Source: Mobula hypostoma (lineage: Eukaryota). From it: 64,000 nt of DNA. Numbering within the stretch: the stretch's first letter is position 1; the number at the start of each line of letters is the position of its first letter. The position numbers were made by a program, and so were the translations under genes. The notes under the pieces are model-generated. The model was not told the DNA's origin. It saw only the letters and a program-made list of their open reading frames with translations, and ran no database searches. This document shows, piece by piece, positions 7,700 to 42,581 of the stretch. Location of the stretch: contig NC_086108.1 of assembly GCF_963921235.1 (NCBI RefSeq), forward strand, positions 18,414,001 to 18,478,000. Direction: 5' to 3'.

Positions 7700-8060
7700 T
7701 CAAAAATTACAGGAGGATCTTGATCAACTGAGCAGAGGGATAGCAAATGGAGTTTGATTCAAGTAAGTACAAGGTGTTGCATTTTGAAAAGTCAAATCAG
7801 AGTCACACTTTCATAGTGAGCAGTAAAACCCTGGGGAGTGTTGTAGGAACGGAGTGGGCTAGGAGTACAATAATGTGGTAATTATGTATAATTATGTTCC
7901 TGAAAGTGGTGTTACAGATAGACAGGATGGTGAAGAAATGAAATGTTTTGGAGAGATATGGGCCAAATGCATACAAATGGGATTGGATTGGATGGGAGTT
8001 TAGGTCGGCATGGGCCAGTTGGGCTGAAGGGCCTGTTTCCATACTGTATGACTATGGTAT
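7700..8060 (+). mobile_element. Old CR1 remnants (RT thumb + 3' tail)
   Basis: LQEDLDQL..QMEFDSSKYKVLHF-like coding remnant and GGGCTGAAGGGCCTGTTTCC tail. Confidence 0.65.
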
Positions 8061-8769
8061 GGGCCTTCATAGTATCTAACAGCCAGCTGGCAGTGCAGGA
8101 ATCCATTACCACTCAATTAATACAGGACAATGTAGCACGATATGAGATTTAAAAAAAGATGGATTTGCTTAGGAGGATTCACTCAGGTGGCCTAAACTCT
8201 TAATCAGAATGTGGGGAGTATAGGCCAGTATGGACCAATTCAATTTGGTCATGGCTGGTCTTTCTCTATGCATGTTCCTACACTGATCCCATAACTCTTC
8301 ATCCCCTTAATTCCTAACAATTTAGCCATTGCTAACACTCACACACAACAACTGAGTCTGCACAGCCCTTGTGTGTAAAGAATTCCAAAGGAAGTGGTGG
8401 TGAAGCTGTTTCCCTTCTCCTCTGTCATGAATGGCTAACCCTTTACATTGAGATCTTAGATGCACCAGTTAGGAGTAACATTTGGAGACCCGTAAGAATT
8501 CTGTGAATTCCAGTAACCTGAAAGAGTTTGGCCCAGTCTGCTTAATCTCTTTTCAGAAGTCAAAGCTTCCCTTCCAGGAGCCATACTTTAGAAATTTCTG
8601 CATTGCTGTTGTTGTGTTATTTTTGGGCCTGGTTATGTTCTTTTGAGCTTATTGAATGTTGGAGAAAAATACAACATTGTTCTAAGTTGATTACCTCTGC
8701 AAATTAATGGCTTGTATAGCTGGGATATTTGAAGTTGTCAGTTTCTATTCCACTGTTATGAGACTATTA

Positions 8770-9261
8770 CTCCACCTTTGGTCCCCACCTGGCACTTAGC
8801 TCTCACCTGTGGCTCCCCGTAGCTGTTTGCATGCGACAGCGGACACACCCCGGGCAACGGCTTCGACAAGCCGGCTAAACCAGGTGAGGATAGCCGACGG
8901 GTCTCAAACCCTCGGTGAGATAGGGAGTTGTCTGTCCCAGCATGTGAAGACATACTCCGGCGGATTGAGTGGACGAGACCAGCGGAAGGTCCAACTGTCA
9001 AGAAGGCGGTCTCTGCAAGCATCGTGGAACGTGTAGAGCAGGACAAGACACAGAAGACGTCCTGGTCATCCACTGCGCCTAGTCCCATCTCCAGCCGCCT
9101 AGACTCTGTCTTGCCACTGGATCCAGATGGGAATTGGGAAGAGAGAGTGAGGTTGATGCTGCGCAACTCTCCCTCACTTAAATCCAAATCAAGCGCTAGT
9201 CTCGACACCATCATTATGGTGTTGAGGTCCTCTTCGACATCAACAATGGACGAACAACAAC
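8770..9261 (+). mobile_element. Non-coding, non-autonomous retroposon (probably RTE-mobilised), 492 bp
   Basis: Perfect 12-bp TSD ATGAGACTATTA (8758-8769 / 9262-9273), (CAA)n tail, 11-bp 3' stem-loop 9201-9226, CpG-rich body, no tRNA A/B boxes seen. Confidence 0.85.
8802..8888 (+). ncRNA. HDV-like ribozyme core (P1 5' strand missing in this copy)
   Basis: P2 CTCACCTG/CAGGTGAG; P3 GGC/GAC; L3 TCCCCGT; 7-nt P1 3' strand ACACCCC; GGGCAAC junction; P4 CGGCTT-CGAC-AAGCCG; J4/2 G-C-T-A-A. Confidence 0.7.
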
Positions 9262-9579
9262 ATGAGACTATTAAATGGACCTCTTGTACAGTAAGATAGA
9301 CCTACTATTTCAATATAACTCATTATGGCTGTACACTTTATTGTCTGCTTGCACTGTATTTCATCTGTACCTGTAATACTATATTCTGCATTCTCTTGTT
9401 GTTTATCCCTTGTCCTACGTCAGTGTACTGATATCAGAGTTATAGAATCAGACAGTATGGAAACAAGCCCTTTGGCCCAATTGTCCCATGTGACCAAAAT
9501 TCCCATCTAAGCTAGTCACATTTGCCCAAATCCATCTAAACCTTTCCTATCGATGCACCCATCCACATACCCTTTAAAT

Positions 9580-12415
9580 TCATAAGGAATAGGGAATAAG
9601 GTGGATCTTGTCGTACAGCTACAGATTGGCAGGTATGATATTGTGGCCATCACTGAGACATGGCTAAAGGATGCATATCTCTGGGAGCTGAACGTCCAAG
9701 GATACATGGTGTATCAGAAGGATAGGAAGGTAGGCAGAGGGGGAGGCGTGGCTTTATTGGTAAGAAATGATATTAAATCATTAGAAAGAGGTGATATAGG
9801 ATTGGAAGGTGCAGAATCTTTATGGGTTGAGAGAAGAAATTGCAAGGGTAAAAGGGCCCTGATGGCAGTTATTTATAGGCCTCCAAACAGCTGCAGGGAT
9901 GTGGACTACAAATTACAACAGGAAATAGAAAAGGCTTGTCAGTAGGGCAGTGTTATAATAATTGTGGGGGATTTTAACATGCGAGTGGATTGGGAAAATC
10001 AGGTTGGCACTGGATCCCAAGAGAGAGAATTTGTAAAATGTCTGCAAGATGGCCTTTCAGAACAGCTTGTTGTTGAGCCCACTAGGGGATCGGCTGTACT
10101 GGATTGGGTATTGTGTAATGAACTGGAGGTGATTAGAGAGATTGAGGTGAAGGATCCCTTAGGAGACAGTGATCATAACATGATTGAGTTCACTGTGAAA
10201 TTAGAAAAAGAGAAGCTGAAATCTGATGTGTCGGTATTTCAGTGGAGTAAAGGAAATTACAGTGGCATGAGAGAGCAACTGGCCAAAGTTGACTGGAAAG
10301 GGACACTGGCGGGAAAGACGGAAGAGCAGCAATGGCTGGAGTTTATGCGAGAAGTGAGGAAGGTGCAAGACAGGTATATTCCATAAAAGAAGAAATTTTC
10401 GAATGGAAAAAGGATGCAACCGTGGTTGACAAGAGAAGTCAAAGTCAAAGATAAAGCAAAGGAGAGGGCATACAAGGAAGCAAAAATTAGTGGGAAGACA
10501 GAGGATTGGGAAGTTTTTAAAAGCTTACAAAAGGAAACTAAGAAGGTCATTAAGAGGGAAAAGATTAACTACGAAAGGAAACTAGCAAATAATATCAAAG
10601 AGGATACTAAAAGCTTATTCAAGTAAAAAAAGAGTAAAAGACAGGTGAGAGTAGATATAGGACCGACAGAAAATGATGCTGGAGAAATTGTAATGGGAGA
10701 TAAGGAGATGGCGGAGGAACTGAACGAGTATTTTGCATCAGTCTTCACTGAGAAAGATATCAGCAGTATACCGGACAGTCAAGGGTGGCAGGGAAGAGAA
10801 GTGTGCGCAGTCACAATTACAACAGAGAAAGTACTCAGGAAGCTGAATAGTCTAAAGATAGATAAATCTCCCGGACCAGATGGAATGCACCCGCGTGTTC
10901 TGAAAGAAGTAGCTGTGGAGATTGCGGAGACATTAGTGATGATCTTTCAAAAGTCGATAGATTCTGGCATGGTTCCGGAGGACTGGAAGATTGAAGATGT
11001 CACTCCGCTATTTAAGAAGGGGGCAAGGAAGCAAAAAGGAAATTATAGACCTGTTAGCTTGACATCGGTGGTTGGGAAGTTGTTGGATTCGATTGTCAAG
11101 GATGAGGTTACAGAGTACCTGGAGGCATATGACAAGATAGGCAGAACTCAGCATGGATTCCTTAAAGGAAAATCCTGCCTGACAAACCTATGACAATTTT
11201 TTGAGGAAATTACCAGTAGGCTAGTCAAGGGAGATGCGGTGGATGTTGTATATTTGGATTTTCAGAAGGCCTTTGACAAGGTGCCACACATGAGGCTACT
11301 TAACAAGATAAGAGCCCATGGAAATATGGGAAAGTTACATACGTGGATAGAGCGTTGGCTGATTGGCAGGAAACAGAGAGTGGGAATAAAGGGATCCTAT
11401 TCTGGTTGGCTGCCGATTACCAGTGGTGTTCCACAGGGTCCGTGTTGGGGCCGCTTCTTTTTAAATTGTACATCAATGATTTGGATTATGGAATAGATGG
11501 CTTTGTGGCTAAGTTTGCTGATGATACGAAGATAGGGGCCAGTAGTGCTGAGGAAACGGAGAGTCTGCAGAGAGACTTGGATAGATTGGAAGAACGGGCA
11601 AAGAAGTGGTAAATGAAATACAATGTTGGAAAGTGTATGGTTATGCACTTTGGCAGAAGAAATAAACGGGCAGACTATTATTTAAATGGGGAAAGAGTTC
11701 AAAGTTCTGAGATGCAACGGGACTTGGGAGTCCTCGTACAGGATACTCTTAAGGTTAACCTGCAGGTTGAGTCTGTGGTGAAGAAGGCAAATGCAATGTT
11801 GGCATTCATTTCTAGAGGAATAGAGTATAGGAGCAGGGATGTGATGTTGAGGCCCTATAAGGCACTGGTGAGACCTCACTTGGAGTACTGTGGGCAGTTT
11901 TGGTCTCCTTATTTAAGAAAGAATGTGCTGACGTTGGAGAGGGTACAGAGAAGATTCACTAGAATGATTCGGGGAATAAGAGGGTTAACATATGAGGAAC
12001 GTTTGTCTGCTCTTGGACTGTATTCCTTGGAGTTTAGAAGAATGAGGGGAGACCTCATAGAAACATTTCGAATGTTGAAAGGCATGGACAGAGAGGGTGT
12101 GTCAAAGTTGTTTCCCATGATGGGGGAGTCTAGTACGAGAGGGCATGACTTAAGGATTGAAGGGCGCCCATTCAGAACAGAGATGCGAAGAAATGTTTTT
12201 AGTCAGAGGGTGGTGAATCTATGGATTTTGTTGCCACGGGCAGCGGTGGAGGCCAAGTCATTGGGTGTATTTAAGGCACAGATTGATAGGTATCTGAGTA
12301 GCCAGGGCATCAAAGGTTATGGTGAGAAGGCGGGGGAGTGGGACTAAATGGGAGAATGAATCAGCTCATGATAAAATGGCAGAGCAGACTCGATGGCTTC
12401 TTTGTCTTATGGTCT
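9580..12415 (+). mobile_element. CR1 LINE, nearly complete ORF2 (APE + RT) with 3' UTR, disrupted
   Basis: VAITETWL, GGGVALLV, YRPP, GDFN, SDHN (APE); SPGPDG, NYRPVSLTS, QHGF, YLDFQKAFDKVPH, FADD, RPHLEYC, ERVQRRFTRMI. Several stops and frameshifts; inserted into an older minus-strand CR1 tail (9445-9575 / 12416-12530). Confidence 0.95.
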
Positions 12416-20656: not shown

Positions 20657-22650
20657 TGTCATAAGCTGGTGGCTGGGAACAGACCGAAGTGCAAGACACA
20701 GACACTGAAGTACTAGGGACAGGACTAGGATACAGGGCGATGGCAAGTAAATGGACAGGAAAACCAGGAACCTGGAACAGGACTGAACAAGAGAGCTAGG
20801 AGCCCGGGCTTGAACTCCGAGCCAGAGACCGGACAAGGACTCAGTACCTGGGTCTTGCCTCTGGCTCGGACCCCAGACTAGGAAAGGACAAGGCTTGGCA
20901 GGCAGGCAGGACGAGGCTGGAGTCTCCAGGCTAGAAGCTGGAGGCGAGAGACTTGGCTTGGCAAGAGGCTCAAGGCGAGAGACTTGGCTTGGCTTGGCAA
21001 GAGGCTCGAGGCTGGAGTCTACAGGCTCGAGGCTAGGCAAGAGACAAGGCGAGGCTTGACAGGAGGCTGGAGACTTGAGACTAGGGGCGAGGCGGGGCGA
21101 GACGCGAGGCTGGAGACTTGAGACTAGGGGCGAGACGCGAGGCTGGAGACTTGAGACTAGGGGCGAGGTGGGGCGAGACGCGAGGCTGGAGACTTGAGAC
21201 TAGGGGCGAGGCGGGGCGAGACGCGAGGCTGGAGACTTGAGACTAGGGGCGAGGCGGGGCGAGACGCGAGGCTGGAGACTTGAGACTAGGGGCGAGGCGG
21301 GGCGAGACGCGAGGCTGGAGACTTGAGACTAGGGGCGAGGCGGGGCGAGACGCGAGGCTGGAGACTTGAGACTAGGGGCGAGGCGGGGCGAGACGCGAGG
21401 CTGGAGACTTGAGACTAGGGGCGAGGCGGGGCGAGACGCGAGGCTGGAGACTTGAGACTAGGGGCGAGGCGGGGCGAGACGCGAGGCTGGAGACTTGAGA
21501 CTAGGGGCGAGGCGGGGCGAGACGCGAGGCTGGAGACTTGAGACTAGGGGCGAGGCGGGGCGAGGCTGGAGACTTGAGACTAGGGGCGAGGCGGGGCGAG
21601 GCTGGAGACTTGAGACTAGGGGCGAGGCGGGGCGAGGCTGGAGACTTGAGACTAGGGGCGAGGCGCGCGAGGCTGGAGACTTGAGACGAGGGGCGAGGCG
21701 CGAGGCTGGAGACTTGAGACGAGGGGCGAGGCGCGAGGCTGGAGACTTGAAACTAGGGGCGAGGCGCGAGGCTGGAGGCTGGAGGCGGGGTGAGGAGAGG
21801 CTGGAGGCAGGGCGAGGAGAGGCTGGAGGCTTGAGTCTTGAGGCGGGGCTTGGCAGGCTCCTCCTGGGCAGGGCGTGGATCACCACCCAACAGAGGCAAG
21901 GGACAGAACCAACCTCAGGTAACGGCAAGACGGCCTGGCTTACCTGAGCGGAAGCAAGGGACAGGAAGGGACAGAACCAACCCCAGGTAACGGCAAGATG
22001 GCCTGGCTTACCTGGGTGGAGGCAAGGGACAGGAAAGGAGCTAGGTACAGGGTGGCTCCAGGACCAGACAGCAAGACAAGACAAGGCAAGGCTACTGGCA
22101 AAGCAGGGCAAGATGAGAACTTCAGGCGAGGCGAGAGTTACTGGCAAGACAAGGCAGGACTTCAGGCGAGGAAACAGAAGGCAGGGGAAGGGATACAAGG
22201 AGTAAGGACAAGAACGATCTAGCCTCCACGCCCTGCTCTCTGGAGGTATTTATGCAGCCAGCCCCAACTAGCATCAGCTGCCTCAATTAGCTCAACAAGG
22301 ACAGAAACAGGGTAAATAGGAAAACCTGGAGCAAGGGTCGATGGACCAGACCGTGAACCGGAATACGGACTTCACGGACCGGACTATGACACTATGACAG
22401 TACCCACGCCCCCACCCCCCCACGGGAGCCTCCGGGCGACCAAACAGGGTATCCAGACTATGGACGACCCGGGCAGGTGGGAGGGTATGTAACAGAAAGG
22501 AACCCCGGGTGCAAGAGGAAAACGACAGTGTCTGTGTCGCTGGGTCCATGGTTGGCTGGATCGTTCTGTCATAAGTTGGTGGCTGGGAACGGACCTAAGT
22601 GCAAGACACAGACACTGAAGTACTAGGGACAGGACTGGGATACTAGGGAC
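20657..22650 (-). mobile_element. Miniature non-autonomous Tf1/sushi-type Gypsy element: 3' LTR 20657-22399, internal 22400-22566, partial 5' LTR 22567-22650
   Basis: TGTCATA...TATGACA termini; LTR start repeated at 22567; internal part has GAACGATCCAGCC PBS, ATG GAC CCA GCG (MDPA gag start at 22549) and a G-rich PPT next to the 3' LTR. Confidence 0.85.
21063..21780 (+). repeat. 43-bp GC-rich minisatellite (with 33-36-bp variants) inside the LTR
   Basis: Unit GAGGCTGGAGACTTGAGACTAGGGGCGAGGCGGGGCGAGACGC, about 10 near-perfect copies followed by shortened units. Confidence 0.95.
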
Positions 22651-41203: not shown

Positions 41204-42581
41204 TGTCATACGGAGGGAGGCTGGGAACGGATCCAAGTGCAAGACACAGACACTGAAGTACTAGGGACAGGACTAGGATACAGGGCGATGGCAAGGACAT
41301 GGACAGGAAAACGAGGAACCTGGAACAGGACTGAACAAGAGAGTTAGGAGCCCGGGCTTGGACTCCGAGCCAGAGACTGGACAAGGACCCAGTACCTGGG
41401 TCTTGCCTCTGGCTCGGACCCTAGAACTAGGCAAGGACGAGGCTTGGCAGGCAGGCAGGACAAGGCTGGAATCTTCAGGCTTGAGGCTAGAGACTAGAGA
41501 CTTGGCTTGGCAGGAGGCAGGAGGCTGGAGTCTTCAGGCTTGCGGCTAGAGGCTAGAGACATGGCATGGCTTGGCAAGAGGCCAGAGGCTAGAAACTTGG
41601 CTTGGCAACAGGCTAGAGGCTGGAGTCTTCAGGCTTGGGGCTAGGCAGGAGGCTGGAGTCTTCAGGCTTGGGGCTAGGCAGGAGGCTGGAGTCTTCAGGC
41701 TTAGGGCTAGGCAGGAGGCTGGAGTCTTCAGGCTTGAGGCTAGGCAAGAGATGAGGTGAGGCTTGGCAGGAGGCTGGAGACTTGAGACGAGGCGAGGCGA
41801 GGCTGGAGGCTAGAGACTTGAGGCGAGGCGAGGCTGGAGGCTTGAGGCAAGGTGAGGCTGGAGGCTGGAGGCAGGAGACGAGGCGACGCGAGGCTGGAAG
41901 CTGGAGGCAGGAGACTTGAGGTGAGGCTGGAGGCAGGAGACTTGAGGCGAGGCTGGCAGCTGGAGGCAGGAGACGAGGCGAGGATAGGCTGGAGGCAGGA
42001 GAATTGAGGCGAGGCTAGAGGCTGGAGGCAGGAGATGAGGCGAGGCTGGAGGCTGGAGACTTGAGGCAAGGCTCGACAGGAGGCAGGAGACTTGAGGCGA
42101 AGCTTGGCAGGCTCCTGCTGGGCAGGTCGTGGTACTCCTGGGCAGGATGCGGATCATCTGGGCAGGGCGCGGATCACCACCCGACAGAGTCAAGAGACAG
42201 GAAGGGACAGAACCAACCCCAGGTAATGGCAAGACGGCCTGGCTTACCTGGGTGGAAGCAAGGGACAGGAAGGGAGCTAGGTACAGAGTGGCTCCAGGAC
42301 AAGACTGCAGGCGAGACGAGACGAGAGTTACTAGCAAGAGAAGGCAGGGTTTCAGGCGAGGAAACAGAAGGCAGAGCAAGGGATACAAGGAGTAAGGACA
42401 AGAACAATCCAGCCGCCACGCCTAGGTCTCTGAAGGTATTTATGCGGCCAGCCCCAACAAGCATCAGCTACTTCAATTTTCTCAACAAGAACAGAAACAG
42501 GGTAGATAGGAAAACCTGGAGCAAGGGTCGATGGACCGGACTGTGAACCAGAATACGGACTTCACGAACCGGACCATGACA
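41204..42581 (-). mobile_element. Solo LTR of the Tf1/sushi-type family (homologous to 20657-22399)
   Basis: TGTCAT...ATGACA termini, 5-bp TSD AAAGG (41199-41203 / 42582-42586); internal GAGGC-rich tandem arrays. Confidence 0.92.

Follow-up and report, generated by a model that had tools for sequence, protein, structure and literature searches.

The element at positions 8770-9261 (forward strand) of the window, meaning the whole 64,000-nt stretch of Mobula hypostoma DNA that was analysed, was a 5'-truncated copy of a 564-nt non-autonomous family, here termed family A. With good confidence, we regard this family as a LINE derivative clipped to its leader and tail, the intact copies of which are headed by a predicted self-cutting double pseudoknot of the HDV type. 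An earlier interpretation made from the letters of the window (the sequence-only reading) had proposed that an HDV-like fold heads a non-coding retroposon family and that this copy had lost its 5' end, and both proposals were borne out by the alignment of the family and by a fold that covaried between lineages.

The copy differed from the family consensus by 20 substitutions, ended in (CAA)n and was present once within the 64-kb window. It was bracketed by a 12-bp target-site duplication (ATGAGACTATTA at 8758-8769, duplicated at 9262-9273, both on the forward strand). The last bases of the 5' duplication, TTA, also match the element, of which the alignment starts at consensus position 71, and appear to be microhomology at the truncation point. 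The first ~70 nt were missing including the 5' strand of P1 and the 5' arm of P1.2. Downstream of the ribozyme core were the non-coding remainder of the kept LINE 5' leader (8891-9213, forward strand) and a LINE-derived 3' tail with a terminal hairpin and (CAA)n repeats (9214-9261, forward strand), the latter delimited by comparison with copies of the parent LINE. The copy itself did not form all five helices of the fold as the P1 5' strand was absent and P3 mismatched, and the folding of the window strand alone was not unusual (z = -1.35). The best substitute for the P1 strand gave 6/7 pairs 580-960 nt upstream and was not credited. As the P1 5' strand would have been lost during insertion and P3 broken later, this copy is likely inactive.

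Family A was abundant. A first look yielded 756 genomic candidates for the 5' part of the element, the best 40 of which had 95-100% identity, and 2,102 candidates for the 3' part. A gapped pattern of the ribozyme core had 1,450 exact genomic matches (726+724), a minimum that also counts some copies of the sister families, while the reversed control had none (0+0). The ribozyme core is therefore not a chance occurrence, the stretch being a repeat. The 564-nt consensus built from aligned copies was non-coding, and independent retrotransposition was indicated by many copies scattered through the genome that had target duplications and truncated 5' ends.

Full-length copies opened with GGGGTGT, the exact partner of the P1 3' strand ACACCCC, as the sequence-only reading had predicted for the missing strand. 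The predicted cleavage site precedes the first base of P1, G1, which is also the 5' end of the element: 34/84 copies started at position 1 and 49/84 within 3 nt of G1. Among 29 copies chosen by their 3' end only, 14 started within 3 nt of G1, four at positions 7-10, eight were further truncated and three had inverted 5' parts. The bases upstream of G1 had nothing in common except a T at -1 (32/49). A second GGGGTGT at consensus positions 10-16 was rejected as P1 since it is an arm of P1.2, and only 5/84 copies started at 9-10. Copies with an inverted 5' part were seen at L020, L047, L052 and L059, presumably as in twin priming. P3, the L3 residues, the GG of P1.1 and the catalytic C were all intact in 33/50 copies covering the core, a sample that leans toward well-kept copies.

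The parent LINE was found through the deletion junction. Contigs from two other organisms continued into other sequence to either side of consensus position 517, and a motif from this junction-flanking sequence led to a LINE ORF whose 3' end had the family tail directly after it. The tail was present in 30/30 LINE 3'-end loci and in all five long LINE copies fetched, and consensus 1-521 was present in four of these five (in one from position 13) at 86-94%. One LINE (L242) was 4.1 kb in length with a 1,109-codon open frame including endonuclease and RT domains. Around leader position 731 of L242, the long frame had no start codon near its start, and an ATG in another frame opened a short overlapping upstream ORF. 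The parent LINE encoded AP endonuclease and RT in a single long ORF, lacked a detected RNase H domain and had short 3' tandem repeats. One long AP endonuclease and RT ORF without RNase H, together with short 3' tandem repeats, characterizes the RTE clade, and it is on these features, not on its place in a tree of named reference proteins, that we take the parent LINE to be RTE-type. Close protein relatives occurred in a frog, turtles, a shark and a ray; no relative was found in viral contigs, and solved structures offered only L1 and R2 proteins.

Family A comprises a 521-nt LINE leader joined to a ~46-nt LINE tail and has no ORF. Since leader and tail both match one autonomous LINE, family A is by sequence comparison an internal deletion of that LINE, joined at a short shared sequence. 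The sequence-only reading had taken it for an independent, ribozyme-headed SINE, which gave way to a two-ended internal-deletion derivative of an autonomous LINE carrying the same ribozyme. A classical SINE was likewise rejected, as the head is a LINE leader with no tRNA-, 5S- or 7SL-derived part and no Rfam match. The parent copies found were older than family A (about 92-93% alike), ended in (CAC)n and had a 3-nt difference from the family A tail, so the exact mobilising subfamily was not found among the parent copies recovered. A LINE with a DUF6451 domain was also considered as a partner and rejected: it had 145 matches with one near-intact ORF, and 28 loci were without similarity to families A, B and C. 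The near-intact ORF (L111:2257-5259, minus strand, 1,000 aa) belonged to a different LINE family with endonuclease, RT and DUF6451 domains and a (GAA)n tail. Three shortened LINE copies (L227, L235, L219) had leader pieces joined close to the truncation point, which suggests one-off internal deletions or template jumps.

Two sister families had their first 380 nt in common with family A and differed from it in their bodies and tails. Family B (L061-L090) was 537 nt with copies 87% like their own consensus, and family C (L149-L178) was about 530 nt with copies 94% like theirs. Starts within 3 nt of G1 occurred in 23/30 copies of B and 25/30 of C, fractions that are biased upward because the loci were found by queries including the 5' end. 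The 3' part of family B weakly resembled the leaders of other LINE lineages (L280, L257; E 0.01-0.04), and the parent LINEs of B and C were not found.

All the core elements named in the sequence-only reading were located in the window copy where it had placed them (all on the forward strand). The 5' strand of P2 was at 8800-8810 and its 3' strand, with a bulged C8880, at 8879-8890; the pairing of CTCACCTG (8802-8809) with CAGGTGAG (8881-8888) stood as proposed, and the helix was longer than proposed at 10-11 bp. Between these strands, sequence and lineage comparison placed the P3 5' strand GGC at 8811-8813, followed by L3 (8814-8821), which consisted of TCCCCGT at 8814-8820 and A8821 and contained the U, both cytosines of P1.1 (8815-8816) and, at 8819, the conserved G. 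An extra hairpin, GCTGTT/GACAGC (8822-8840), and a single G8841 separated L3 from the P3 3' strand GAC at 8842-8844. Position 8843 was C in 48/50 other copies covering the core, in agreement with the predicted family sequence GCC; GAC is therefore a mutation (C8843A), which breaks the middle pair. The P1 3' strand ACACCCC (8845-8851), which would pair with the opening 7 nt of a full-length copy, absent here, was followed by the P1.1 GG (8852-8853) and J1.1/4, together spanning 8852-8857 by lineage comparison. The junction GGGCAAC lay where it had been read, except that its last C is already the first base of the P4 hairpin CGGCTT-CGAC-AAGCCG (8858-8873). J4/2 was GCTAA (8874-8878) with the predicted catalytic C at 8875, again from sequence and lineage comparison. 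A further helix, P1.2, which lies in J1/2, had been overlooked; its predicted 3' arm was at 8788-8797 with a C8797T change, and its 5' arm was absent from this copy through the truncation.

The fold was followed across lineages. A structure descriptor scored the three family consensus sequences at 27.5-30.5 and 111 control stretches at no more than 21.5, and of 71 loci of metagenomic LINE relatives, 37 had leader sequence and five of these exceeded all 111 controls, the descriptor missing L253, L260 and L312. The same hairpin-bearing ribozyme was present in L245 (62% protein identity) and L280 (49%). P1, P1.1, P2, P3 and P4 were in nested double-pseudoknot order in consensus A and C and in L245 and L280, and in family B the GG of P1.1 reads AG in the majority of copies, a pattern of CpG decay. 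The L3 U and G (reverse wobble), the P1.1 cytosines and the J4/2 catalytic C were present in all five lineages (A, B, C, L245, L280) and match the defining residues of a published descriptor for HDV-like ribozymes (PMC6326823). J1/2 was 88-98 nt, closed by a P1.2 helix of at least 10 bp with four two-sided changes.

In nine natural sequences, 11/44 pairs changed on both sides and 95.7% of cells paired; 0/500 shuffles reached this, a test inflated by the relatedness of the nine sequences, and slid controls gave 0-3 pairs. By helix the two-sided changes were P1 1/7, P1.2 4/10, P2 1/11, P4 4/6 and P3 0/3. P1 was compensated in L245 (position 2) and in L280 (position 1, read by hand as the automatic alignment was off there, and extra to the 1/7), P2 at one pair in L280, and P4 throughout the five lineages. 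The covariation suggested as a check by the sequence-only reading was thus found for P1, P2 and P4, while P3 was invariant and the stem of the extra hairpin had no lineage-level compensation. Identity between family A and L280 was 81% in the core versus 58% and 55% in the flanks, and between A and L245 90% versus 79% and 73%; between A and family C it was 82% versus 88% and 81%, the core being no better kept. Rfam gave no gathering-score match in the window (five unrelated weak matches only at 8000-10000, E 5-9) and no HDV-type match in seven loci including three with canonical L3. Since these canonical-L3 loci were missed too, the result is uninformative on the hairpin.

The best-surviving alternative, which we consider unlikely, is that an internal promoter in the leader sets the 5' end and that the HDV-like fold, though real, mostly shields the RNA in the manner of a cap, assists translation or binds a protein, cutting only rarely. 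P1 position 6 was a mismatched A in 15/49 full-length family A heads and P1' was changed in only 4/50 copies, so a P1-mismatched subfamily has multiplied, which speaks against a strict need for cleavage and for this alternative. A further point in its favour is the strong primary-sequence conservation over the first 380 nt of all three families, much further than the ribozyme extends, and there are precedents in the L1Tc Pr77, which is both promoter and ribozyme (PMC3383444), and in the cap-like protection described for such folds (PMC13708176). Against it, all five lineages retained P1.1, both L3 residues (U and G) and the catalytic C, and P1 was compensated at positions 1 and 2, which fits selection on cleavage geometry. 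Promoter and ribozyme roles are moreover compatible with each other.

The extra hairpin between L3 and P3' was supported as a persistent part of these predicted ribozymes. L3 was 26-28 nt rather than 7-8 nt: its first 8 nt were canonical and were followed by a 17-19-nt hairpin and a G before P3'. The hairpin was kept in all five lineages with an almost invariant stem, and its loop varied from 9-11 nt and in sequence. As the stem hardly varies, the pairing has no covariation support; the sole two-sided change in it was in a single family B copy, and L250, whose hairpin had a two-sided change and whose L3 was deleted, was left out of the count. A nested model gave a pair probability of 0.45 for the hairpin, 0.36 for P3 with the family GCC and 0.00 for an alternative P3. 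The L3 hairpin is thus supported by its persistence and by predicted folding, not by covariation.

It is improbable, more so than a promoter origin of the 5' end, that the insert disables or slows catalysis, or that its GCT pairs as P3, leaving these leaders as fossils of or switches from a canonical ribozyme. Consistent with such a loss, L3 contributes to the active site (PMC4908430, PMC3774820), a canonical 7-nt L3 was present in LINE relatives (L257, L288 and L303 by the descriptor, with HDV-like folds and a canonical-looking L3 by eye in L253 and L312), and the near-invariant stem leaves its pairing without covariation proof. The opposing evidence was that the alternative P3 had no probability in the nested model, that the stem was kept as the loop changed, and that the insert persisted in LINEs down to 49% protein identity. 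In an AU test on the endonuclease region, a single clade of hairpin-bearing LINEs was rejected (p = 2e-60); its 11 rows included L264 and L279 with undefined ribozyme type and L260 as canonical by eye only. L280 fell outside a fully supported group holding L242 and L245 along with L253 and L260, which look canonical, and the RT region agreed. As the hairpin-bearing LINEs form no single clade, head exchange or repeated loss would explain their scatter.

A ribozyme-headed SINE of separate origin with a merely borrowed LINE tail is scarcely credible even though A, B and C have 380 nt in common and diverge behind it as SINE heads do, as it is refuted for family A by the match of the entire consensus 1-521 to the leader of a full-length LINE and opposed by related leaders on distant LINEs. 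A chimeric subfamily was also observed, in which family A 1-517 was followed by a 140-nt tRNA-like SINE segment and an older LINE tail, and which had multiplied as a unit (L134, L146, L022, L008 and 16/30 among L179-L208). The 140-nt junction insert was rejected as LINE interior given that it is this tRNA-like SINE segment; ARAGORN found no tRNA gene in six loci. The same segment also heads other SINEs with different 3' parts.

The deletion junction coincided with a potential pairing of the two LINE ends. An 11-bp junction helix, CTCGACACCAT / ATGGTGTTGAG (9201-9226, forward strand), takes its left arm from the LINE leader and its right arm from the LINE tail; these arms are 3.5 kb apart in the LINE, and the deletion junction falls within the helix loop in family A. 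In the chimeric subfamily the 140-nt SINE segment occupied the same loop, and families B and C had a helix at the equivalent place before the terminal hairpin. Over 22 full-length LINEs (21 metagenomic and L242), mean helix scores were 7.95 with the own tail versus 6.55 with other tails (permutation p = 2e-5), the related LINEs among the 22 not being independent. Scores of at least 8 were reached by 12/22 own pairs versus 16% of mismatched pairs, and ten of the 22 LINEs including L280 and L250 scored below 8. The 60-nt leader window was placed by the family A junction and had been narrowed after a 420-nt window gave a marginal excess (p = 0.04); four shifted leader windows gave differences of 0.03-0.32 and no such excess. 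Free-energy duplexes gave no consistent own-tail excess. The paired sequences differed between elements and were mostly located just before the terminal hairpin.

A clipped two-ended LINE derivative headed by a ribozyme would be expected to propagate as follows. A family copy would be transcribed by Pol II as read-through from an upstream host promoter and the ribozyme would cut the transcript just before G1, resulting in a uniform 5' end. P1.2 would aid by pulling P1 toward P2, an effect measured in drz-Agam-2, and the extra hairpin would bulge from L3 downstream of its conserved residues (U, C, C and G) and thus leave the active site intact. Leader and tail would then pair into a helix beside the terminal 3' hairpin, forming a paired-end unit that would be bound by the LINE protein and copied in trans by target-primed reverse transcription. 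The deletion would have kept both ends because the paired ends, as proposed, are bound and copied by the LINE protein.

The element type itself is ordinary. Bipartite ORF-less RTE derivatives include RTESINE1/2, WALLSI3, RTE-N2_Lch and Bov-A (Kojima 2018, PMC5786205; Kojima 2020, PMC7245038), both they and predicted RTE ribozymes have already been described (PMC5786205, PMC7245038, PMC3747384), and the cause of bipartite derivatives is given as unknown by Kojima (PMC5786205, PMC7245038). Like these elements, family A consists of joined LINE ends with an internal deletion, short 3' tandem repeats and target duplications. Unlike RTE-N2_Lch with its leader of 214 nt, it retains 521 nt of leader, and its two ends meet within the loop of a leader-tail helix, a feature not mentioned for the described bipartite elements in the portions of those papers at hand. 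HDV-like ribozymes occur on RTE, R2, L1Tc/NARTc and SIDER elements including non-autonomous derivatives (PMC6765202, PMC3774820, PMC4035085). The predicted family A ribozyme resembles these in its order P1-J1/2-P2-P3-L3-P1.1-P4-J4/2, in a first base of P1 that is the 5' end of the element, in the U and G of L3 and the C of J4/2, and in being carried by non-autonomous derivatives too. Its long J1/2 closed by P1.2 is like that of drz-Agam-2, in which P1.2 raises the speed by nearly three orders of magnitude (PMC4908430). It differs from known HDV-like ribozymes in the hairpin-bearing L3 of 26-28 nt, as elsewhere, in the portions of the sources at hand, L3 is conserved and J1/2 and P4 are variable.

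No L3 helix and no RTE leader-tail helix were found described in the literature searched, and an L3 insert may be shown in Ruminski 2011 or Webb 2009 and 2011. Family A may already be deposited in Repbase. We tentatively put forward as undescribed, with belief a little short of evenly balanced, an L3-helix subclass of HDV-like ribozymes as a head swappable between LINEs, together with RTE leader-tail pairing as a two-ended reverse transcription signal. If true, such a signal would account for the retention of both ends by RTE parasites, and the leader bases that matter would become known for RTE-based gene-insertion templates, a use to which RTE-1 leaders and tails are already put (PMC13708176). 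The leader-tail helix also makes it testable why RTE and a few other LINE clades yield two-ended parasites. If the ribozyme cleaves, a whole helix can be accommodated in the HDV active-site loop and a new engineering site is on offer, and search descriptors would be widened, as those with L3 fixed at 7-8 nt would miss the hairpin form.

Other repeats were noted in the window. Directly downstream of the family A copy, 9580-9900 was judged by eye to be the start of another LINE-like endonuclease region. Related G+C-rich tandem arrays with 43-nt and 31-33-nt units were located at 21063-21700 and 41441-42104 inside two similar elements.
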